Positions 2,765-34,552 of a stretch of 39,903 nucleotides of DNA are shown one piece after another; the first letter of the stretch is position 1; each line of letters starts with the position of its first letter. A model generated the notes under the pieces. That model was not told the DNA's origin. It did not search any database and was given only the letters and a program-made list of their open reading frames with translations. The stretch comes from a virus (Duplodnaviria > Heunggongvirae > Uroviricota > Caudoviricetes): IMG/VR virus record IMGVR_UViG_2654587728_000015; one strand, written 5' to 3'. Position numbers and translations under genes: made by a program.

Positions 2765-2812
2765 CACTGTTTATCCATACAGTTAAAAATAATACTGTAT
2801 ACAAACACAGTA
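2761..2812 (+). promoter_or_regulatory. SOS-regulated promoter: -35 TTGACA followed by two tandem LexA boxes (CTGT-N8-ACAG) upstream of dinI-like gene
   Basis: CACTGTTTATCCATACAGTT (~2765..2784) and TACTGTATACAAACACAGTA (~2793..2812) both fit LexA box consensus TACTGT(AT)4ACAGTA. Confidence 0.7.
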
Positions 2813-2825
2813 TAGAGGGACTTTT

Positions 2826-3074
2826 ATGCGTATTGAAATCTGCATAGCCAAAGAAAAAATGACTAAAATGCCAACCGGTGCTGTGGATGCGTTAAAGGAA
2901 GAATTAACCCGACGCATCAGTAAACGTTATGACGATGTAGAGGTGATCGTAAAAGCCACCAGCAACGATGGCCTTTCTGTTACACGCACCGCAGATAAGG
3001 ATTCTGCAAAAACTTTTGTTCAGGAGACTCTGAAAGATACCTGGGAATCTGCTGACGAGTGGTTTGTTCACTAA
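2826..3074 (+). CDS. dinI: DinI-like DNA-damage-inducible protein
   Basis: 82-aa protein with conserved DinI C-terminal motif ([15 protein letters not shown]); LexA boxes upstream; SD AGAGGGA. Confidence 0.8.
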
Positions 3075-24705: not shown

Positions 24706-25758
24706 TTATTTCCCCACCAGTTCACTTACCTCTTTCACCGTCTGATTAAACCGCTCTGACTCAAGTTCAACACCTAACGCCCGACGCCCCAGCGCCATTG
24801 CTGCTTTTATTGTGGAACCGGATCCCATAAAGAAATCAGCAACCAGATCGCCTGGTCGACTACTGGCATTGATTATTTGCCGGAGCATATCCGCCGGTTT
24901 CTCGCACGGATGTTTACCCGGATAGAACTGAACGGGCTTATGCGTCCAGACATCGGTATAAGGCACGGAGACTGATACGGAGAAATAGCGCCGGAGTGAT
25001 TTAAACTCATCCAGCAATTCAGAATATTTGCGATTCAGTGAATCATAAGATGCCACCAGCTGGTGGTGTGGTTGTTCCAATTGCTGTTCCTGAAACTTCT
25101 CTGCCGCTATACGGGAAAACAGTGCCTGTAACTTCCGGTAGTCAGCCTCATTCGGCAACTGCCACTGACTGGCACCAAACCAGTGGGAAACCATATTTTT
25201 CTTACCTGTGGCTTCGGCAATTTGTTTTGCCGTTATACCCAGTTCGGCACGAGCATCCCTGAAATACGATATCAGCGGTGCCATTATGTGCTGTTTGAGT
25301 TCCCTTTCTTTTGCCGCATAGCCGTCACTTTTGCCACGATATGGCCCATGGTAATGTTCAGCAAACAGAACGCGCTCTGTGGCAGGAAAATATGCACGCA
25401 GACTTTCTTTATTACACCCATTCCAACGTCCGGACGGCTTCGCCCAGATGATATGGTTAAGCACGTTGAAACGTTCACGCATCATGATCTCAATATCAGA
25501 TGCCAGGCGATGTCCACAGAACAGGTAAAGGCTTCCGGCAGGTTTCAACACCCGCCAGAACTGGGCCAGACAGTGATCCAGCCACTTAAGGTAATCTTCG
25601 TCCCCTTTCCACTGATTGTCCCAACCGTTGGGTTTCACCTTGAAGTAAGGCGGATCGGTAACAATCAGGTCAATGGAATCATCAGGCAGGGACTGAATAA
25701 AATGCAGGCAATCAGCGTTGATTAAATCAACACTGTTTATTTTTACAGTATTTTTCAT
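24706..25758 (-). CDS. DNA methyltransferase (N6-adenine or N4-cytosine, DPPY motif, beta-class order)
   Basis: 350-aa ORF with motif IV DPPY near N-terminus and AdoMet-binding FxGxG (FFMGSGST) near C-terminus; no adjacent restriction endonuclease. Confidence 0.8.
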   Translation of the reverse strand: MKNTVKINSVDLINADCLHFIQSLPDDSIDLIVTDPPYFKVKPNGWDNQWKGDEDYLKWLDHCLAQFWRVLKPAGSLYLFCGHRLASDIEIMMRERFNVLNHIIWAKPSGRWNGCNKESLRAYFPATERVLFAEHYHGPYRGKSDGYAAKERELKQHIMAPLISYFRDARAELGITAKQIAEATGKKNMVSHWFGASQWQLPNEADYRKLQALFSRIAAEKFQEQQLEQPHHQLVASYDSLNRKYSELLDEFKSLRRYFSVSVSVPYTDVWTHKPVQFYPGKHPCEKPADMLRQIINASSRPGDLVADFFMGSGSTIKAAMALGRRALGVELESERFNQTVKEVSELVGK

Positions 25759-25907: not shown

Positions 25908-26126
25908 TCATTGCTGAAGGCGTCTGTAACAGCCGAACTGGTAATCTGCCAGCCCCGCCATAACCAGCTGGGTCAGTATTAACTGACAGCGTTCGCGTGA
26001 AAGGTATGTGTTTTGTGCTATCTCCCCGACTGTTGCCGGTTCGACGCTTAATTCATTAAAAACAACTTTCGCCGTTTCTGTCATATCTAGCTGTTTTAGC
26101 ATGTCTTTTTTCCTTCTGGTTAACAT
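25908..26126 (-). CDS. Small hypothetical protein, first ORF downstream of the late promoter
   Basis: 72-aa ORF with ATG start; weak RBS; function unknown. Confidence 0.45.
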   Translation of the reverse strand: MLTRRKKDMLKQLDMTETAKVVFNELSVEPATVGEIAQNTYLSRERCQLILTQLVMAGLADYQFGCYRRLQQ

Positions 26127-26352: not shown

Positions 26353-27111
26353 TTATCTTGTCACTTTTCTCAATTGTGTCTCTGCATATGCTTCTTCCTG
26401 CCAGCACTTTGTAACCAGTTTATCAATGACATCTGCATATCCTTTGTACCACTGATAATCCGTCAAATCTGGTACCAGTTTCTGTACATGATGCCGCGCC
26501 AGTGTGGTTGGTAAACGGCTAAACCGGTTTCCATTGCAACGTCCACAAATCTTATAAACAGGCGTGCCATGAAGCCGGGTCCTTTTTTCATCCAGGACAA
26601 TACCTTTACCCTTACACCCTCTGCACGCTGTGCTGACTTCTCCCTTACCATGACAATGCTGACATAGTTCCTTCACCCACTCCTCCTTGATAACAGATTC
26701 ACCGCTTCTGGAGTGTTTCACCACTTCGCGCAATACATTATGAAATCCAGTACCTGCACAATGCTCACAGCGAGCCTTACTTGCCGCAGACCTGGAATAA
26801 TCAGCAAAGGCAAAATTCACAAGGTAAGGGATGATCTGTAACCGGGTTTCTTCACTCAATTTATTCAATGTCGGGTTATCCAGTGCCATCGCGTAATTGA
26901 GCAGACCTTCAATCGCAAACTGAGGATCCTGAACACCAACTTTTGCCAGGAATAAGGCAAAACCCAGTGGTGCTTTCGACTGCACCATCCCCTGCGCAGC
27001 CATCACATCCGTAATCGTTAAACCACCAGAGCCTGTCGCCGGTGCGTCATCGCTCAATTTTGGAGATTTTGGGGAGTAATATTTTGGTAAGGCTTCAAGG
27101 TTCATGCTCAT
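26353..27111 (-). CDS. Q: Late-gene antitermination protein Q-like (Cys-rich zinc-binding region)
   Basis: 252-aa ORF with CEHCAGTG...CQHCHGKG...CRGCKGKG...CGRCNG motifs; located immediately upstream of pR'/tR'-like unit and lysis genes. Confidence 0.7.
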   Translation of the reverse strand: MSMNLEALPKYYSPKSPKLSDDAPATGSGGLTITDVMAAQGMVQSKAPLGFALFLAKVGVQDPQFAIEGLLNYAMALDNPTLNKLSEETRLQIIPYLVNFAFADYSRSAASKARCEHCAGTGFHNVLREVVKHSRSGESVIKEEWVKELCQHCHGKGEVSTACRGCKGKGIVLDEKRTRLHGTPVYKICGRCNGNRFSRLPTTLARHHVQKLVPDLTDYQWYKGYADVIDKLVTKCWQEEAYAETQLRKVTR

Positions 27112-27118
27112 TCTCCAC

Positions 27119-28114
27119 TTACGCCAGTACGCCTATTGCCAGCGCACGATCGATAAAACGAAATATCAGCTCCAGCTGGGAGCCATACTTCTCTTCAAAT
27201 GCCACGGTATCCGCATGCAGCTCGTCGTGATGCTTTCTGCACAAAGGCAACACAAAGAGGTCATGCGCTTTTGTACCCATTCCCCCCTGACCGTGGCCTA
27301 TCAGGTGGTGGGGATCATCAGCGGGCTTTCCACAACATGCACACGGCTGTGTCTTAACCCAGCGCGTGTACTTTTCATTAACCCAGCGGCGACGTTTTGG
27401 GCGTAACATAAAAGACTCCGGCGACTCCGGATCCACTTTCAGCGCCAGCACCTTTTTTGCCTTATCCTGGATGATGCTGGTGGCAGGAACCGAAGGCACA
27501 AGGTCACTTTCCCGGGTGACAGACGGCACAACAGGCTTTGGTAATCTCAGTGCCTTACGGGCTGCACTTTCCGGTAAGGCATCCGCCAGGTCATTACGAA
27601 TCAGCCACCAGCACAGTTCCGGCATTGTCACAACGTGACTATCATCAAAACCGAGATCCCGACGCACAACAGACAACACCCAGCGGGCACAGTTATCCGT
27701 TGCCATTGATTCCAGCCGTTCCGTGAACTGATCGCGCAGCTGGTTATCACAGTGCCAGCACAGACGGATTGCGCCCGGAGCGTGTCGCATTGTGGTCATG
27801 TTCTCGCTGTGCCAGTCGGAATGAGGCCACTGGCAGCCTTTTTCACGAAGTAACCAGCTTTCAAGACATTCCACGCCACCAGCACGACGGATCACTGCCT
27901 CATTGCGGAACACGGCCCGAACAGCAGGATCATCCGCCAGCGGTTGTGATGCCGCGGGAACGGCACCACTGGCGAAAGATGAATAACGTTCCGGCTCAGG
28001 CTCCAGCAGTACACGCCCCTGCATAAACAGGGGCATCAGCTCTGAACCTGGTCTGAACAATACGATCCCCATACGCGGGGCTATTTCAGGGGTCAGTAGT
28101 GCTCTCACGGTCAC
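27119..28114 (-). CDS. DUF968-family prophage protein with C-terminal HNH-like zinc-finger
   Basis: 331-aa ORF ending CACCGKPADDPHHLIGHGQ...CRKHHDELH; apparent GTG start. Confidence 0.6.
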   Translation of the reverse strand: MTVRALLTPEIAPRMGIVLFRPGSELMPLFMQGRVLLEPEPERYSSFASGAVPAASQPLADDPAVRAVFRNEAVIRRAGGVECLESWLLREKGCQWPHSDWHSENMTTMRHAPGAIRLCWHCDNQLRDQFTERLESMATDNCARWVLSVVRRDLGFDDSHVVTMPELCWWLIRNDLADALPESAARKALRLPKPVVPSVTRESDLVPSVPATSIIQDKAKKVLALKVDPESPESFMLRPKRRRWVNEKYTRWVKTQPCACCGKPADDPHHLIGHGQGGMGTKAHDLFVLPLCRKHHDELHADTVAFEEKYGSQLELIFRFIDRALAIGVLA

Positions 28115-28115
28115 C

Positions 28116-28913
28116 TCAATGAACGGTATCGAGCAACTTTAACAGCTCAGGGAATCGGGATTCGAAAAAGTGCGGCTGCGTCTCGCGCGGATTTGCGGGA
28201 CTGGTGATGTTCTTGCCGAACATGCAGCCTTTCGCTGTCAGCGACCAGAATTTTTTGATGTTGTTAATCGCGGTACGGCTGTATCGTTCGCGCTGCTCGA
28301 CGATCCCCAGCTTCACCATCTGGTGATATGCCTGATTAGCTGTCAGGCGGATACCATACTGCTTCAGCAGTGCACTCAGTGACAGCGTGGGGCGGCTTGA
28401 GCCATCAGGCGCGTCAGCAGGAGCATCAATGGCATAGCGCGGTGCCAGATTCGGTAAGCCAACAGCCTCCTGGAGTTTCTGACAGGCTCCAAGCACTGAA
28501 GAGTTAGACAGGTTTAATTCCCGGCGCATAAAGTCCAGCAGAATCACACCAGCCTGCATCTTGTCAGCAGCCTGTCCGGATAATTTTTCCGGTGCGCTGG
28601 TTACCATGTCGAAAGTACGGATCACCTTCAGATGGAATGACGGGCTTATCCACATTGCATAGGCATACACCAGTTCTTTGCAGACATACGTCCCCTGGTT
28701 ATTTCCGCCACGAATAACGTTAACTGGCTCTATATTGACCGAGTTGCAAATCTGCAACTCGCTTATTAAACGTTCAGTTTGCTCATTGCGGAGCCAGAAT
28801 GCAGGCTTATGCTTATCCAGAGAACCGGCAGCCCTGTGCAGATCGTTCAGGCTGTAACGACCATAAGCATCACGACGAACTTCAATACCATCAATGACCA
28901 TCAGATTATTCAT
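28116..28913 (-). CDS. KilA-N domain protein
   Basis: ORF 28116..28946; start taken at ATG 28913 with SD AGGAG; N-terminal KilA-N-like region (MNNLMVIDGIEVRRDAYGRYSLNDLHRAAG). Confidence 0.7.
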   Translation of the reverse strand: MNNLMVIDGIEVRRDAYGRYSLNDLHRAAGSLDKHKPAFWLRNEQTERLISELQICNSVNIEPVNVIRGGNNQGTYVCKELVYAYAMWISPSFHLKVIRTFDMVTSAPEKLSGQAADKMQAGVILLDFMRRELNLSNSSVLGACQKLQEAVGLPNLAPRYAIDAPADAPDGSSRPTLSLSALLKQYGIRLTANQAYHQMVKLGIVEQRERYSRTAINNIKKFWSLTAKGCMFGKNITSPANPRETQPHFFESRFPELLKLLDTVH

Positions 28914-28932
28914 ACTTCGTTTCTCCTCTTGA

Positions 28933-29322
28933 TCAGGCGGCTGCACCCGCCGTTTTCTCGTACTTACTGATGGTGATCTCGACCTTCCCTTTCGGGATAA
29001 CCGGTCCCCACTCCACCAGCATTCTTTTCACCTGTCTGTCGTCTTCCCACACACCCGCGTGGGTCAACGCGTCAAACAGCGCCTTGTTATAGTTGTCCAG
29101 ATCGCGGATCCGGTTATCCGGAGGAAACAACACGATCTCCACTGAAGCAGGTGCCGACGTTGGTTTTGGCAGACGACGTAACTGCTCAACTATTGCTGCG
29201 CACGCCGCGCTCTGAAATTTTCGCCCCGCCGCGCTTATCAGGCTCTTACCAGCAAATTCCCCCTTGTTGGGGTGTCGCCAGTACGAGTTCACGCTGGGCG
29301 GGAAAGGCAGGATCAGCTTCAT
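28933..29322 (-). CDS. rusA: Holliday junction resolvase RusA
   Basis: 129-aa ORF with RusA motifs (PPSVNSYW...DLDNYNKALFDALTHAGVWEDD). Confidence 0.85.
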   Translation of the reverse strand: MKLILPFPPSVNSYWRHPNKGEFAGKSLISAAGRKFQSAACAAIVEQLRRLPKPTSAPASVEIVLFPPDNRIRDLDNYNKALFDALTHAGVWEDDRQVKRMLVEWGPVIPKGKVEITISKYEKTAGAAA

Positions 29323-29645
29323 ACTTTCAGGCCTCTCTCATGTAACCAGTGGGCTGCACGCAGCCTGGCGTTTTCCTCACCGGCAAGCAGTGAGCGGATA
29401 ATCCCGACCGCCTCGCTGTCGTCGTCCTTCACCGCGGTATGAAGAGTGATACCCCGGGCCACGCCACGCTTTATCGTGATGACTCCTTTTTTCTCCAGTG
29501 CGCGAAGATGTTCCACCGCTGCATTCACTGAACGGTATCCCAGCATGGTTGCCACCTCCTGATTGGTTGGCGGGAAGCCACGTTCTTTCTGGTAAGAAAT
29601 CAGCATATCCAGCACCTGCTGCTGGCATTGAGTTAACGTCGTCAT
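29319..29645 (-). CDS. LexA N-terminal DNA-binding-domain-like protein lacking the S24 peptidase domain
   Basis: 108-aa ORF; pattern LT..QQ.V.D.I...GFPPT..E.A..LGYRS.NAA.EHL.AL.KKGVI.I..G.ARGI.L parallels the LexA winged-helix domain including the recognition helix. Confidence 0.7.
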   Translation of the reverse strand: MTTLTQCQQQVLDMLISYQKERGFPPTNQEVATMLGYRSVNAAVEHLRALEKKGVITIKRGVARGITLHTAVKDDDSEAVGIIRSLLAGEENARLRAAHWLHERGLKV

Positions 29646-30295
29646 GCCGCCATCTCCCTGACAAGTTTTTCCGCCTGCTGGCGAACCTGCGCCAGAAACG
29701 CCTCACCACATGCCTCAAGTTCATCGCGCCCGATGTAGCTGATTGCCGGTCCCTTCCAGGTCTTGTCGAAAACAGCAATAGCACCAGCGAAGAAAGCGCC
29801 TGTCGGCACCTGCTTCTCATCCTTCGGGATAAACCAGGCAGGCAGTTCAAAACCAATACGCCCGCGAATAAAAGCAATATGGTCTGCATCTTCCGGCCAC
29901 CAAACTTCGCTGGTGGCAGCTTTGATCAGGAAAACATAGCGCCCGCCTTTATCACGCATAGCACTGGCATGTTTCATGATGTAACGCATGCCGGTGATGT
30001 ATTGCCCCTCATGCTGACTGGCGCGGCTGTACGGGGGATTACCAAAGGCAGCACCTTTAAGCTCCGCAAGACGTTCTGACCAGTCATGCGCCAGCGCGTT
30101 GTCTTCCGCAGTGTAATAAGCGGCACATTTGGCGTTATCACCATCAGTAAACAGATCCAGAACAAACGGGCCAAACAGGGTGTTAATTCCCCAGAAAATG
30201 TTGTCCGGCGTGCGCCACTGATCGCCCACTTCCTTCAGTTCATGGGCTGGTTTGTTCCGCAGCTCCACCAGCGCCTGGCAATATTTATTACTCAT
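29642..30295 (-). CDS. Phage Dam-type DNA N6-adenine methyltransferase
   Basis: ORF 29642..30328 with ATG at 30295; motifs WRTPDNIF and NPPY. Confidence 0.8.
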   Translation of the reverse strand: MSNKYCQALVELRNKPAHELKEVGDQWRTPDNIFWGINTLFGPFVLDLFTDGDNAKCAAYYTAEDNALAHDWSERLAELKGAAFGNPPYSRASQHEGQYITGMRYIMKHASAMRDKGGRYVFLIKAATSEVWWPEDADHIAFIRGRIGFELPAWFIPKDEKQVPTGAFFAGAIAVFDKTWKGPAISYIGRDELEACGEAFLAQVRQQAEKLVREMAA

Positions 30296-30783
30296 TAAGC
30301 CCCCACGTAATTCCCTGACAGATACCACTCTTCACCCGATGCAGCGCGCTTGCTGCTTTTCCGTAAGCACCGCTCACGATGCGCCAGAAAATTGTTTCGT
30401 TCTGGCTGGGAGTGGCTTTCACGGAATGCCTCCATCCACACCGTTGCAGCTCGACGGAATAAGCCCCTGGACTCCAGTTCTTCAGCCTGGCGGGTCAGGC
30501 ACAAAATCACCCGGGGGTCGTTAGTGCCGACATAGAAATTGCGCACAGGTCTGGTTTCACGAACAGATTGTGGTTCCGGCTCCTGCGCTCTCTCAGTCAG
30601 GCGCGGGAAATGTCTGCGTGTATCTCCTTCACAACGGTGAGCCACACGCCCACTCTGACGTAACTTGCTTGCTGACTGCAGAACGCGCTGCCGTGAGTAA
30701 CCTGCAAAAGCATCCGCAATGTCTCCGGAAGTACACCCCGGATGGGCTTCAATGAATTTCTGAACTTCATTCAAAAGACTCAT
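30295..30783 (-). CDS. Hypothetical early protein with possible PerC/ANR-like C-terminal motif
   Basis: ORF 30295..30789 with ATG at 30783; segment AEELESRGLFRRAATVWMEAF resembles ANR/PerC signature; assignment tentative. Confidence 0.45.
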   Translation of the reverse strand: MSLLNEVQKFIEAHPGCTSGDIADAFAGYSRQRVLQSASKLRQSGRVAHRCEGDTRRHFPRLTERAQEPEPQSVRETRPVRNFYVGTNDPRVILCLTRQAEELESRGLFRRAATVWMEAFRESHSQPERNNFLAHRERCLRKSSKRAASGEEWYLSGNYVGA

Positions 30784-30785
30784 GA

Positions 30786-31592
30786 TCACCCCCTGAATCC
30801 TGCCGGGATCTGGCTGTAGTCCACGTTGTCGTAACTGGCTTTGAAGTACGGGTCCTCACGTCTGACTGCAGATACCGCAGGAACTTCCCAGGATTCTTCG
30901 AAATGACGATCCGGACCAAAGAACGTGACAGCCTGTTTCACAAATTGTGTGCCGCTGTTACCCATCGCAGATACCCAGCCCGCATAGCGTTTCACACCTT
31001 CCAGCATGGTTTCGGGGTTTACCCCCTCATTCAAACGGGCTTTCCAGGCTTTGAAGGCTGCAGATTTTGAATTGCCACCAGCACGTTTGGGATATGCCAG
31101 CCATGCCTGCTCAAACTCCGGAGAGTATTCCGGTCGGTTTGAACGAACTCGCACAGACTCATCAGCAGATGCACCAACAGCTATTGGTTCATTGACTGGT
31201 TCAAAAGAGTGACTGGTTCTGGGTGAATCTCCTGCACTACCCCCTGGTGCAACTCCTGCACTACCTGGTGAATTTGCTGCACCAGATAGTGAATTATTTG
31301 CACTACCCCCTAGTGAATCTCCTGCACCATCAAGATGAAGAAGATAGATATTACTTGAGTTACCTTTTTCACCTTTCCGGGTGACTTTTTTTACCAGCCC
31401 GGACTCACAGAGGGCCGCAATATGATTCATCACAGAACGTTTGCTAATCTCGCACTGATCAGCGATATGCTGATAGCTGGGCCAGCACTCGCCCTGATCG
31501 CTGGCATTATCAGCCAGCTTGATCAGAACCAGTTTTCGCAATGGATTACCCACTCGAATTTTCATCGCTTTAACCATCAGCTCCATACTCAT
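30786..31592 (-). CDS. Replication initiator (lambda O-like organisation: N-terminal HTH domain, repeat-encoded linker, C-terminal domain)
   Basis: 268-aa ORF; N-terminal winged-helix region; iteron array embedded in the central linker coding region; SD GGAGGTG. Confidence 0.65.
   Translation of the reverse strand: MSMELMVKAMKIRVGNPLRKLVLIKLADNASDQGECWPSYQHIADQCEISKRSVMNHIAALCESGLVKKVTRKGEKGNSSNIYLLHLDGAGDSLGGSANNSLSGAANSPGSAGVAPGGSAGDSPRTSHSFEPVNEPIAVGASADESVRVRSNRPEYSPEFEQAWLAYPKRAGGNSKSAAFKAWKARLNEGVNPETMLEGVKRYAGWVSAMGNSGTQFVKQAVTFFGPDRHFEESWEVPAVSAVRREDPYFKASYDNVDYSQIPAGFRG
31222..31327. repeat. Iteron array: about five ~20-bp direct repeats (consensus RGTGAATCTCCTGCACTACC) inside the initiator gene, flanked by an AT-rich stretch (31328..31375); candidate origin of replication
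   Basis: Direct repeats read at ~31222, 31245, 31266, 31287, 31311; encode Gly/Ser/Ala-rich linker. Confidence 0.6.
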
Positions 31593-31813
31593 GCTGCACC
31601 TCCGAGATGCTTCATGTTTTTTCCGGAGCGAAAGGCTATAAGCGGCATACTGACGCGGTAACTACGGCCCAGCGGTTCACAAATCACCTTCTGACATTCA
31701 CGGTCAACCAGGCTAACACGTAGAACATGCCCTGCAGGTGTGGTGTACCACTGACCCGGACGAGGACAACGGAAAGTCTGATTGGTAAACCGTTTGAAAA
31801 TATTCCGGATCAT
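31589..31813 (-). CDS. Hypothetical small early protein
   Basis: 74-aa ORF, ATGA-type overlap with downstream initiator gene. Confidence 0.45.
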   Translation of the reverse strand: MIRNIFKRFTNQTFRCPRPGQWYTTPAGHVLRVSLVDRECQKVICEPLGRSYRVSMPLIAFRSGKNMKHLGGAA

Positions 31814-32046: not shown

Positions 32047-32961
32047 CTAGTTAAAGGCATTGATGTATGCCTCTTTGAACTGGGCAGCACGTTTACCCGT
32101 GAAACCCATAGCAAGAAACGCAAAGCCGTCGCGGGTTATTTGGTAGCAAGGAAGTTTGCGACCTGTGCAATCAGTGTAATCACTCACCGAAAAATTGCGG
32201 GCAGTGAATGATGCTGAGCATTCAAGCGTGCGGATCTTTTTCAGTACATCGTCATGACGTTTGGAGAAGAAGTTGGCAACAGCCAGGGATGAAGTAACAG
32301 CCTGACCATCAACGATGGCAATTTCAGGTTGAGTGAGGGTTGGGATCGTAGCCATGATGGCAGCCTCTTTGGTGATTTTTAATAACTCACCACCAAGGCT
32401 TTCCACGACCTTATTGGTGGTGAGACGTACAGGGGTGGAAATACCGGTCACCAAAGAACCCGGCCCAACCGAAGTTGGCCCTGTACGCCCCACCATAATT
32501 TGGGCGTAATGCTGCTCATGACACAAAAAAACCGCAAGAGCGCGGTTGTGCGCTTTGGTGAATTCCGGGTTTCCACGCCCGGCACCCGTTTTATAAGGTG
32601 CCTGAACAGTGTAACGTCCCGGAATGGCAGAATCAATGTGCTGGTGGTCCTTCACACTCAACAAAATCACGCCTGAATTTCCACAAAGGACTAAAGCACT
32701 CATGCGGGTAGTCTTTGCGAAGATAGATAACGCGCTGTGTTTCTGGTTCCCAACGAATAACATGGACATAAAGCCCTCTTCCGTCACGAAACCAGCGGTT
32801 AAGTTCCTGCACAACTCGCCCCCCACAGTCAGGTAAAGTTCTCTGTGGTTACTTACAGCCAGGTGATTTGGTAATCTGCATTCATGCCGTAACAACAAGT
32901 GTTCAGCGACACTGACCACCAGCTGTTGCGACAAACGGTTATTTGCCGTTAAACTGTTCAT
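32047..32961 (-). CDS. Rha/AntA-family phage regulatory domain protein (domain in C-terminal ~100 aa; N-terminal 200 aa unknown; possible internal start at 32355)
   Basis: C-terminal segment ...SSLAVANFFSKRHDDVLKKIRTL...YQITRDGFAFLAMGFTGKRAAQFKEAYINAFN matches Rha-type domain; internal SD AAGAGG plus ATG at ~32355. Confidence 0.55.
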   Translation of the reverse strand: MNSLTANNRLSQQLVVSVAEHLLLRHECRLPNHLAVSNHRELYLTVGGELCRNLTAGFVTEEGFMSMLFVGNQKHSALSIFAKTTRMSALVLCGNSGVILLSVKDHQHIDSAIPGRYTVQAPYKTGAGRGNPEFTKAHNRALAVFLCHEQHYAQIMVGRTGPTSVGPGSLVTGISTPVRLTTNKVVESLGGELLKITKEAAIMATIPTLTQPEIAIVDGQAVTSSLAVANFFSKRHDDVLKKIRTLECSASFTARNFSVSDYTDCTGRKLPCYQITRDGFAFLAMGFTGKRAAQFKEAYINAFN

Positions 32962-33509
32962 GCGTTAGTTTCTCCACAGACACAAAACGCCACGACGCCC
33001 GGAGCTGCACACTCGCGGGCGTCACTCTTTTCTGGAGCGCAGAAGATTTTGTAGACCAGTGCTGCATGTTCCTGGAGCTTCGAAATTGACAGATACAACT
33101 CATCATTAATTGCTGTCTGCTCGTGTGGCTCCACGACCCCATCTTCGATTGCCGAACGAATCTGCTTTGAGTAATTCCCGATCTGTTCGATGACTTCCAG
33201 CAGGCGCTGGTTTATATCGGCGTTCTCTACTTCATCAATTTCAGGAAGCGATACGAACACCCCACCAGCAGACTGTGCGACAGCATCCGCAATGTAGTGA
33301 GTGCCAGCCGCACGCTGTAAAACCATTGCCCATCCCAGCGGGAAAATCTGATCGCCATCTGCACGAAGGCGGTTGAATAAAGCGTTCTCTGTTACATCCA
33401 GCCAGTCAGCAGCTTCAGCGTAACCCCCAGGCAATGCCGCGATAGTTTTTCTGACAGCTTTCACGTACCACTCAGGTTGTTTTTCCACTTTCCAGTGATG
33501 CTTACCCAC
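32958..33509 (-). CDS. Hypothetical protein in the cII-equivalent position (possibly YdaT/CII-analog family)
   Basis: 183-aa ORF immediately after cro, apparent GTG start with strong SD AGGAGGT; family assignment by position only. Confidence 0.5.
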   Translation of the reverse strand: MGKHHWKVEKQPEWYVKAVRKTIAALPGGYAEAADWLDVTENALFNRLRADGDQIFPLGWAMVLQRAAGTHYIADAVAQSAGGVFVSLPEIDEVENADINQRLLEVIEQIGNYSKQIRSAIEDGVVEPHEQTAINDELYLSISKLQEHAALVYKIFCAPEKSDARECAAPGVVAFCVCGETNA

Positions 33510-33762
33510 GGCTTACCTCCTGTTCCTGTGGTTTAAACCCATTCTGGTTTTGGCTAGATTGAAAACGTGCCGGATAAAGAATCTGCATTTCGCTGATTTC
33601 ACCCTTAAAAAAATTGGCCAGACGTTCTGCAAGATCGATAGATGGAATTTGTTCCAGTCTTTCAATACGACTCAGCGTCGCTGGATTGACCTGAACGCCC
33701 GCAGCAACATGCTGCAAAGTAAATCCGTGCGCCTTACGCACATTCCGTAATGGTGATTGCAT
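33502..33762 (-). CDS. cro: Cro-like HTH repressor
   Basis: 86-aa XRE-type HTH protein (FTLQHVAAGVQVNPATLSRIE) divergent from cI; SD GGAGGT. Confidence 0.8.
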   Translation of the reverse strand: MQSPLRNVRKAHGFTLQHVAAGVQVNPATLSRIERLEQIPSIDLAERLANFFKGEISEMQILYPARFQSSQNQNGFKPQEQEVSRG

Positions 33763-33859
33763 ATAACCTCCACATATTGCGTGATGAGCATATTATTTCA
33801 CGCAAATATTTTGCGCAAGTTGATTTGCTTAACGCGCAATAAAGAAATGTAATAAACGC
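33763..33859. promoter_or_regulatory. OR-like operator/promoter region between cro and cI with TTGC-N7-GCAA sites (perfect at ~33825..33839, one-mismatch at ~33777..33791) plus additional TTGCGCAA palindrome
   Basis: Inverted-repeat half-sites read directly; divergent genes on both sides. Confidence 0.6.
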
Positions 33860-34552
33860 ATGAACATAGGAAATCGAGTCAGACAACTTCGCCAGGCGAA
33901 GAACATGAAAATCGCCGATCTCGCTGAAGCAATAGGAGTGGATGCGGCGAATATCTCGCGCCTCGAAACAGGTAAGCAGAAACAATTCACTGAACAAGCC
34001 CTGAGTAATATTGCCAGGAGCTTAGGTGTTGATATTGCTGATCTCTTTACCTCAGACCTCAAAAGTAATACTGTATGTAAAAACAGTATTAGTGAGGATG
34101 TTGCGCAGGTGAAGGATGTATTCCGTATTGAAATGCTGGATGTCAGTGCCAGTGCGGGAAATGGCCTTATCCAGGGCGGTGATGTCATTGATGTGATTCA
34201 TGCCATTGAATACAGAACTGATAATGCTGTATCGATGTTTGGTGGACGACCAGCAAATCACATTAAAGTTATCAACGTTCGTGGGGACAGTATGTGTCCA
34301 ACCATTGAGCCAGGAGATCTCATCTTCGTTGATATCAGTATCAATCAGTTTGATGGGGATGGTATATATGTATTTGGTTTTGATGATAAAATTTACGTCA
34401 AACGACTGCAAATGATACCTGATAAACTGCTGGTAATTTCTGATAATCAGATTTACCGCGAATGGGGAATTACCAGCGAAAACGAACACAGGTTTATGGT
34501 CTTTGGAAAGGTCTTAATCAGTCAGTCACAAACCCTTAAGCGACACAATTAA
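33860..34552 (+). CDS. cI: CI-like prophage repressor (HTH plus LexA-like S24 autopeptidase domain)
   Basis: 230-aa ORF; N-terminal HTH (IADLAEAIGVDAANISRLE), C-terminal GDSM serine and KRL lysine of S24 fold; no obvious SD, consistent with leaderless PRM-type transcript. Confidence 0.85.
   Translation: MNIGNRVRQLRQAKNMKIADLAEAIGVDAANISRLETGKQKQFTEQALSNIARSLGVDIADLFTSDLKSNTVCKNSISEDVAQVKDVFRIEMLDVSASAGNGLIQGGDVIDVIHAIEYRTDNAVSMFGGRPANHIKVINVRGDSMCPTIEPGDLIFVDISINQFDGDGIYVFGFDDKIYVKRLQMIPDKLLVISDNQIYREWGITSENEHRFMVFGKVLISQSQTLKRHN

Follow-up and report, generated by a model that had tools for sequence, protein, structure and literature searches.

A LexA-type winged-helix protein without a protease domain in the early operon of an SfV-like prophage, with LexA-box palindromes as possible targets

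What might a phage do with the DNA-binding domain of LexA once the protease domain is missing? This question is raised by a 108-aa open reading frame (ORF) in a 39,903-nt stretch of viral DNA (IMG/VR record IMGVR_UViG_2654587728_000015), an SfV-like myovirus prophage inserted at dusA. We refer to this whole stretch as the window, and all positions are counted on it. The ORF, hereafter the LexA-like gene, lies at 29319..29645 on the minus strand with an ATG start, exactly where an earlier, sequence-only reading had placed it, and encodes a winged-helix domain followed by a flexible linker and a two-helix tail, with no S24 peptidase domain. We found that the gene is real, widespread and already annotated, and that it belongs to a known class of phage-encoded LexA-domain-only proteins. 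As to its role, the reading that we tentatively put forward, at something short of an even chance, is that of a RecA-insensitive, LexA-derived operator binder that would be made from the early operon, dimerize through its tail, and occupy LexA-box palindromes while host LexA is depleted.

The Pfam profile LexA_DNA_bind (PF01726) matches residues 1-65 over its full length (positions 1-65 of 65) with E=2.9e-19 and 69 bits, against a cutoff of 23.7, and HMMER aligns residues 2-69 to the LexA chains 1lea and 3jso of the PDB with E about 1e-15. An AlphaFold model of the protein, built on a 28-sequence family alignment, has a mean predicted local distance difference test score (pLDDT) of 83. This model superposes on the LexA-DNA complex 3jso with a root-mean-square deviation (rmsd) of 1.1 Å over 68 residues at 50% identity, and the superpositions on 3jso and 1lea together span 1.0-1.3 Å at 48-51% identity. 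The predicted helices 6-22, 28-35, and 40-52 and strands 56-58 and 66-68 make up a winged-helix domain of codons 1-69 (29439..29645, minus strand; block pLDDT 80-90). The profile search and the superposition thus agree on the homology to the LexA N-terminal winged-helix domain that the sequence-only reading had claimed.

That reading had also stated that the S24 autoprotease domain is missing, and this holds as well: the protein ends at residue 108 with no Peptidase_S24 match in Pfam, and the NCBIfam equivalog model for LexA, TIGR00498, is matched only along profile positions 1-91 of 203, at 70.8 bits, below its cutoff of 110.95. Compared with E. coli LexA, the protein therefore has the winged-helix domain but lacks the S24 domain with its Ser-Lys dyad (Ser119/Lys156), a score above the TIGR00498 cutoff, and the conserved Ala-Gly cleavage site (Ala84-Gly85). 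We considered whether the segment LLAGE, which HMMER aligns to VAAGE of LexA, is a vestigial cleavage site, and rejected this because the Ala-Gly pair is unconserved in the family (the equivalent segments include LLANE, LLVGE, MIAEE, and LLTGG) and the segment is predicted to be helical, not a strand. We conclude that the gene encodes a phage-borne LexA-type winged-helix domain without a protease, and that database names containing “SOS-response repressor and protease LexA” are wrong on the protease, as the peptidase domain is absent.

In place of the C-terminal domain of E. coli LexA, the protein carries a 30-residue helical hairpin, a conserved C-terminal tail that was absent from the earlier description. 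The hairpin spans codons 78-103 (29337..29414, minus strand), with AlphaFold helices at 78-87 and 93-103 (block pLDDT about 86), and follows linker residues 71-76, which are disordered in the model (pLDDT below 50). Across the 28 sequences, Ala97 and Leu101 are invariant and each helix bears one hydrophobic stripe. The tail alone has no match in Pfam, and in fold searches of PDB and BFVD the matches fell on the DNA-binding domain, not on the tail. The layout of a DNA-binding domain, a flexible linker, and a small alpha-helical module mirrors that of LexA itself, and the predicted hairpin probably replaces the S24 domain as an oligomerization or dimerization module.

How much of the LexA reading head remains can be judged from the recognition helix, VNAAVEHLRALEK, at codons 40-52 (29490..29528, minus strand), where the segment is RSVNAAVEHLRAL here and RSPNAAEEHLKAL in LexA. 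LexA contacts DNA through Ser39, Asn41, Ala42, Glu44, and Glu45 (PMC3091678, PMC13416735). By HMMER alignment, four of these five are kept (Ser39, Asn41, Ala42, and Glu45) and Glu44 is replaced by Val. The pattern S.NAA.EHL.AL, which the sequence-only reading had quoted, is correct in its letters, but one of its dots conceals the change at a DNA contact, and the alignment to LexA that it had called for supports all of the contact residues except this one. Beyond the helix, Gly54 and the wing residues Arg64, Gly65, and Ile66 are also kept, so that the protein shares with the E. coli LexA N-terminal domain (1lea, 3jso) the fold, these residues, and the flexible linker after the domain. Among the homologs that carry the C-terminal tail, hereafter the tailed family (28 representatives, 39-97% identity), Ser39 and Asn41 never change, so the protein probably still reads the LexA half-site in part.

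The position of the gene bears on when the protein is made. Its start overlaps the stop of an upstream Dam-type N6-adenine methyltransferase gene (29642..30328, minus strand; Pfam Dam E=1.1e-45) in an ATGA at 29642-29645, and its stop overlaps, in a second ATGA at 29319-29322, the start of the downstream gene for the Holliday-junction resolvase RusA (28933..29322, minus strand; Pfam RusA E=1.6e-14). The rightward early operon to which these genes belong begins with a cro-like gene (33502..33762, minus strand; Pfam HTH_3 and the RefSeq annotation of homologous loci), behind a PR promoter that we infer to lie in 33763-33859. It continues through YmfL, Rha, a small gene, a replication/helix-turn-helix (HTH) gene, PerC, Dam, the LexA-like gene, RusA, KilA-N, and a DUF968/HNH protein (27119..28114, minus strand; Pfam DUF968 E=3.5e-81, HNHc_6), and ends just after the latter with the antiterminator Q (26353..27111, minus strand; Pfam Antiterm E=9.5e-54). 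A promoter-like element and a terminator, both read from the sequence, follow directly downstream of Q. Scanning the strand of the LexA-like gene across the early operon upstream of it returned no consensus promoter, and on this ground we rejected a dedicated promoter for the gene. Altogether, the shared strand from cro through Q, the start and stop overlaps, and the outcome of the promoter scan bear out the early-operon location previously claimed, and show that the gene, with the replication genes before it and Q after it, is translationally coupled within this delayed-early operon. Given this position and the scan, the LexA-like protein is expected to appear in the delayed-early phase that follows induction or infection, and not in the repressed lysogen. 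E. coli LexA, in contrast, controls its own gene from SOS boxes in front of it.

If the protein still reads LexA-type sites, the prophage itself offers candidates. The window holds five copies of CTGT-N8-ACAG against 0.46 expected, making this the sole enriched N8-spaced palindrome, and ACTGT-N8-ACAGT, with four copies, is the top palindrome with 5-mer arms. A general enumeration of palindromes in the window likewise left the canonical LexA box as the only outlier, and half-sites with a single substitution (CTAT, CTTT, CTCT, TTGT, etc.) occur there at N8 spacing in 0-2 copies each, without enrichment. Since these variant half-sites are unenriched, the canonical boxes are the sole candidates for targets of LexA geometry in the prophage.

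Two of the boxes, CACTGTTTATCCATACAGTT and TACTGTATACAAACACAGTA, lie where the sequence-only reading had seen them, upstream of the dinI-like gene (2826-3074; Pfam DinI E=1.1e-19): they occupy 2765..2812 on the plus strand, with CTGT-N8-ACAG at 2767 and 2795, and the same promoter has the hexamer TTGACA at 2761. Together with this SOS promoter, the dinI-like gene adjoins int at the end of the prophage, 26 kb away from the LexA-like gene. A third candidate target, the near-consensus box TACTGTATGTAAAAACAGTA (34069..34088), is found inside the gene for a cI-type S24 repressor (33860-34552, plus strand; HTH residues 3-64, S24 residues 104-218), across linker codons 69-76, and has perfect 9-bp arms, TAATACTGT and ACAGTATTA. 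Among the cI alleles of related loci, the box-encoded SNTV[C/Y]KNS is fixed and the box shows a single change, in the spacer, giving TACTGTATATAAAAACAGTA; the two codons on either side of the box vary (D/A, L/H/F/V; I/N/T, S/N/G). This pattern suggests that selection acts on the DNA site within cI, which might possibly serve as a LexA roadblock, as an internal SOS promoter, or as a target of the LexA-like protein.

The fourth candidate, TACTGTAAAAATAAACAGTG (25731..25750), is at the 5' end of a late-region orphan N6_N4 methyltransferase gene (24706-25758, minus strand) and overlaps codons 4-9, with a possible -35 element, TTACTG, placed 17 nt before a -10-like TAAAAA that falls within the box. 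It recurs in 20 related loci and in a Salmonella prophage (L090 7741), and phiP27 has it as CTGT-N8-CCAG at 78% nucleotide identity. The sequence suggests that the methyltransferase has an SOS-controlled promoter. We also considered, and rejected, a coupling of this box with the LexA-like gene: in a search of 61 phage records, phiP27, which has the box, gave no LexA-like match. The fifth perfect CTGT-N8-ACAG site, CTCTGTGGTTACTTACAGCC (32843-32858), lies inside a gene of the Rha/Ash family; it lacks an AT-rich spacer and consensus flanks, and its retention in 18 related loci probably reflects coding conservation rather than an operator.

LexA boxes also recur around the gene in its relatives. 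In most of 80 Klebsiella loci (L091-L170; about 75 by tally), a perfect LexA box is located 600-1100 nt upstream of the LexA-like gene, and dinI lies between the two in both Klebsiella loci inspected (L087 and L088). In one Salmonella locus, a perfect box stands about 440 nt ahead of the gene, and Edwardsiella phage EPP-1 has a CTGT-N8-CCAG site upstream of a Rha gene, after which the LexA-like gene comes. This recurrent neighborhood fits an SOS-related role. In L087 and L088 (4387-7243), the perfect box overlaps the promoter of a tightly packed row of genes located just before the lysis genes. The row opens with dinI and a 96-aa gene, continues with the LexA-like gene, which here has an N-terminal extension and encodes 130 aa, and closes with a 67-aa gene, DUF968, and a 200-aa gene. 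This Klebsiella nin-like block may be wholly driven by a host-LexA-controlled promoter.

Starting from what the analysis shows, namely a LexA-type domain that lacks the protease, a conserved tail, and a place in the early operon, the reading that we put forward would work as follows. Once the LexA-like protein is made after prophage induction or infection, its hairpin would dimerize it in place of the LexA C-terminal domain, and the dimer would bind 16-bp palindromes of LexA-box type, with an altered or relaxed reading probable at the base contacted by residue 44. Being uncleavable, the protein would re-occupy operators while host LexA is depleted; the candidate operators are the host SOS boxes and the four strong prophage boxes (the two of the dinI-like promoter, the cI-internal one, and that at the methyltransferase 5' end). 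As an outcome, LexA-controlled transcription would be damped or re-shaped during lytic growth.

A precedent for repression by the DNA-binding domain alone comes from LexA itself, whose N-terminal fragment, left after cleavage, has as its degron the new C-terminus ending in Ala84. The LexA-like protein and this fragment (residues 1-84) are both DNA-binding-domain-only species, but the former ends in GLKV and carries the added helical tail. In the cell, the fragment is cleared by ClpXP and Lon (PMC10584840, PMC3159453). It is reported to still bind and repress at SOS boxes unless it is degraded by ClpXP (PMC10584840), which makes it plausible that a domain-only LexA can repress. A stronger version of the reading would make the protein a RecA-proof LexA mimic that dimerizes through a novel hairpin, restores or re-shapes repression, after host LexA has been cleaved, at the boxes of host SOS genes, of LexA-controlled elements in co-resident prophages, and of its own cI and late region, and forms an SOS-damping module together with the prophage DinI; in this strong form we consider it unlikely.

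Several observations weigh against LexA-box occupancy. None of the 28 tailed sequences has Glu at position 44, where V, A, T, N, F, or L is found instead. At position 45 the residue can be E, G, D, L, I, or T, and positions 42 and 43 vary as well; all three positions differ between the tailed subfamilies of E. coli, Citrobacter, Salmonella, Cronobacter, Klebsiella, Kosakonia, and Atlantibacter. Glu44 is kept in six of the seven full-length LexA representatives from the same search. The E. coli-type protein further differs from E. coli LexA in having Asn for Arg28 and Cys for Arg7, and the Klebsiella type, with Leu-Leu at 44-45, has the recognition helix least like LexA. All of these enterobacterial hosts use the same SOS box. 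Mimicry of LexA at that box would be expected to keep the LexA recognition residues, yet positions 42-45 drift, and this comparison of sequences is the main evidence against the mechanism first proposed, in which a non-cleavable LexA-box binder holds SOS promoters shut: the drift speaks against LexA mimicry at SOS boxes, at least as the conserved function of the tailed family. Nor do the boxes point to the protein in each case. Because the Klebsiella recognition helix is the least LexA-like, the box there is most simply a site for host LexA, and the methyltransferase box is independent of the LexA-like gene, because phiP27 has one without the other. In addition, the sole characterized phage LexA-domain-only protein, gp6 of GIL01, binds a different site and activates, our literature search found no DNA-binding data for the tailed family, and dimerization by the tail is inferred from layout and conservation.

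The same substitutions count in favor of a regulator of diverged specificity that would act, as gp6 does, on an operator of its own in phage or host and activate or repress a few promoters in lytic development, an account that we regard as somewhat unlikely. It would fit the family-wide loss of Glu44, a residue that the full-length LexA representatives mostly retain, the drift at 42-45 against an invariant host SOS box, and the frequency of short LexA-domain-only proteins, which are common in phages of many groups. Its precedent is a 66-aa truncated LexA homolog of the Bacillus tectivirus GIL01, gp6, which activates the late promoter P3 (Fornelos et al. 2018, PMC6182141) by binding its own palindrome, GaCACAnnTGTGaC, overlapping the -35 of P3 (PMC6182141). 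Both gp6 and the LexA-like protein are phage-encoded LexA DNA-binding domains without the cleavable C-terminal domain; both are encoded just upstream of late genes, as the LexA-like gene precedes Q and the late region in every context; and the GIL01 life cycle is tied to host LexA. However, gp6 is tail-less, its key residue Lys38 aligns by MAFFT with Asn41 of the LexA-like protein, and BLASTP between the two gives no alignment at E<=100. Therefore, gp6 is an independent capture from a different host LexA, and is an analog rather than a relative. This account also lacks a candidate operator: we saw no palindrome in the Q-proximal promoter region, no enriched non-LexA or variant palindrome in the window, and no operator-like inverted repeat around the gene (28000-31700). 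Flanking intergenic DNA that could hold a linked site is missing too, as a mosaic-boundary analysis for a co-inherited cis site places the left edge at the start codon and the right module from RusA through DUF968, with no linked non-coding DNA, and late transcription is already provided for by the arrangement of Q, promoter, and terminator.

The constancy of the neighboring genes raises a different possibility, namely that the protein is not a transcription factor but an accessory DNA-binding subunit of a nin-region recombination or nuclease module with DUF968/HNH and/or RusA, for instance one that targets or restrains the nuclease. In each of the six divergent contexts (E. coli, mEp390, Cronobacter, Salmonella, Klebsiella, and Edwardsiella), a DUF968/HNH gene follows the LexA-like gene at a distance of 0-2 genes, RusA is the next gene in essentially all of 80 close loci sampled from viral contigs, and natural fusions join the LexA domain to the C-terminal half of DUF968/HNH (P0158) and to an HNH_3 endonuclease (P0213). 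Yet each fusion is a singleton from one contig that carries little weight and may be a deletion artifact in a decaying prophage, the synteny may only mean that the genes before Q keep a fixed order, and the invariant Ser39 and Asn41 point to sequence-specific reading. A PADLOC search for known defense-system families gave only a marginal winged helix-turn-helix match and none that was convincing, and we hold such a subunit to be quite improbable. To a decaying remnant of a captured lexA without current function we assign only a very slight chance. The ancestral protein has lost half of its length and no phenotype is known for what remains, but 2233 of 5426 complete E. coli genomes (about 41%) hold the gene in intact form, with up to four copies per genome, its novel tail has been conserved between genera at 39-50% identity, and it is translationally coupled within the operon. 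In addition, its 39 nucleotide alleles encode only six protein variants, with a ratio of nonsynonymous to synonymous polymorphism (pN/pS) of 0.03; selecting the loci by protein identity biases this value low.

What follows from either regulatory reading differs. If LexA-type operators are occupied, a very common prophage gene, carried in the E. coli genomes just counted and by Stx2a, Stx2c, cdt, and Shigella serotype-converting phages, could allow the lytic program to override the SOS response of the host; this would bear on SOS-driven mutagenesis, on responses to antibiotics, and on how co-resident prophages, Shiga-toxin phages among them, are induced. If the protein instead has its own specificity, it would be a second independent case, after GIL01 gp6, of a LexA domain serving as a private phage regulator, and its natural recognition-helix variants would form a ready series for the evolution of LexA-type specificity. 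Either way, it is a well-defined experimental target that can be tested cheaply by electrophoretic mobility shift assay (EMSA) or DNA affinity purification sequencing (DAP-seq) together with an SOS reporter. Since the gene is annotated and very common, its presence will not surprise a specialist, and its interest is moderate, with possible consequences for SOS control in many E. coli strains.

In existing annotation, RefSeq lists the protein as WP_000210170 (“LexA family protein” or “LexA family transcriptional regulator”), and PHROG 362 (“transcriptional repressor”) matches residues 1-108 along profile positions 1-106 of 106 with E=1.4e-59. The PHROG 362 and RefSeq entries describe the same family in the same place, between Dam or PerC and RusA, and we see no difference between them and the present gene; the names “transcriptional repressor”, “SOS-response repressor and protease LexA”, and “RecA-mediated autopeptidases” have reached the family by annotation transfer, the protease names wrongly so. 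SfV (orf42), SfII, SfIV, cdtI, mEp460, and Ayreon, as well as many Stx2a and Stx2c phages, encode proteins 95-100% identical to the LexA-like protein. An exhaustive HMMER and profile search restricts the tailed family to prophages of Enterobacteriaceae, with hosts in E. coli/Shigella, Citrobacter, Salmonella, Cronobacter, Klebsiella, Enterobacter, Kosakonia, Atlantibacter, Raoultella, and Hafnia; a Salmonella-type query (P0276) gave no useful match among viral contigs. Our literature search found no experimental study of this enterobacterial tailed family, which a comparative Stx-phage paper merely lists as a “LexA family transcriptional regulator” pham (pfam01726). Outside the tailed family, EPP-1 encodes a separate 71-aa tail-less homolog that keeps SPNAAEDHLKAL. 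The metagenome proteins P0132, P0148, P0186, and P0211, like the fusions P0158 and P0213, show unusual LexA-domain architectures, and several metagenome proteins hold two tandem LexA DNA-binding domains and are possibly single-chain dimers.

Among the 80 close loci, the gene before the LexA-like gene is Dam in 48 and PerC directly in 31. In these 31 loci (L009, L011, L015, and others), homology to the window breaks 0-6 nt before the LexA-like start, with PerC abutting. Given these counts and the break at the start codon, Dam is an optional cassette, present or absent, that is inserted precisely between PerC and the LexA-like gene. The order of an optional methylase, the LexA-like gene, an optional RusA, DUF968/HNH, and Q recurs in mEp390, Cronobacter, Salmonella, Klebsiella, and Edwardsiella, and the operon order persists in relatives whose proteins are only 39-50% identical.

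The remaining layout of the window is that of the SfV-like prophage. Integration is at the 5' end of dusA (541-1578), the tyrosine integrase gene (1667-2764) immediately adjoins it, and the dinI-like gene is followed, on the minus strand, by tail, head, and lysis genes and then by the regulatory region. At the head of the late transcript, between the terminator after the Q-proximal promoter and the methyltransferase gene, a 67-aa ORF (25908-26111, minus strand) has weak winged-helix matches (TrmB, E=0.003; DprA_WH, E=0.004) and would be a second small winged-helix protein; its phiP27 counterpart is annotated as a TrmB family regulator.

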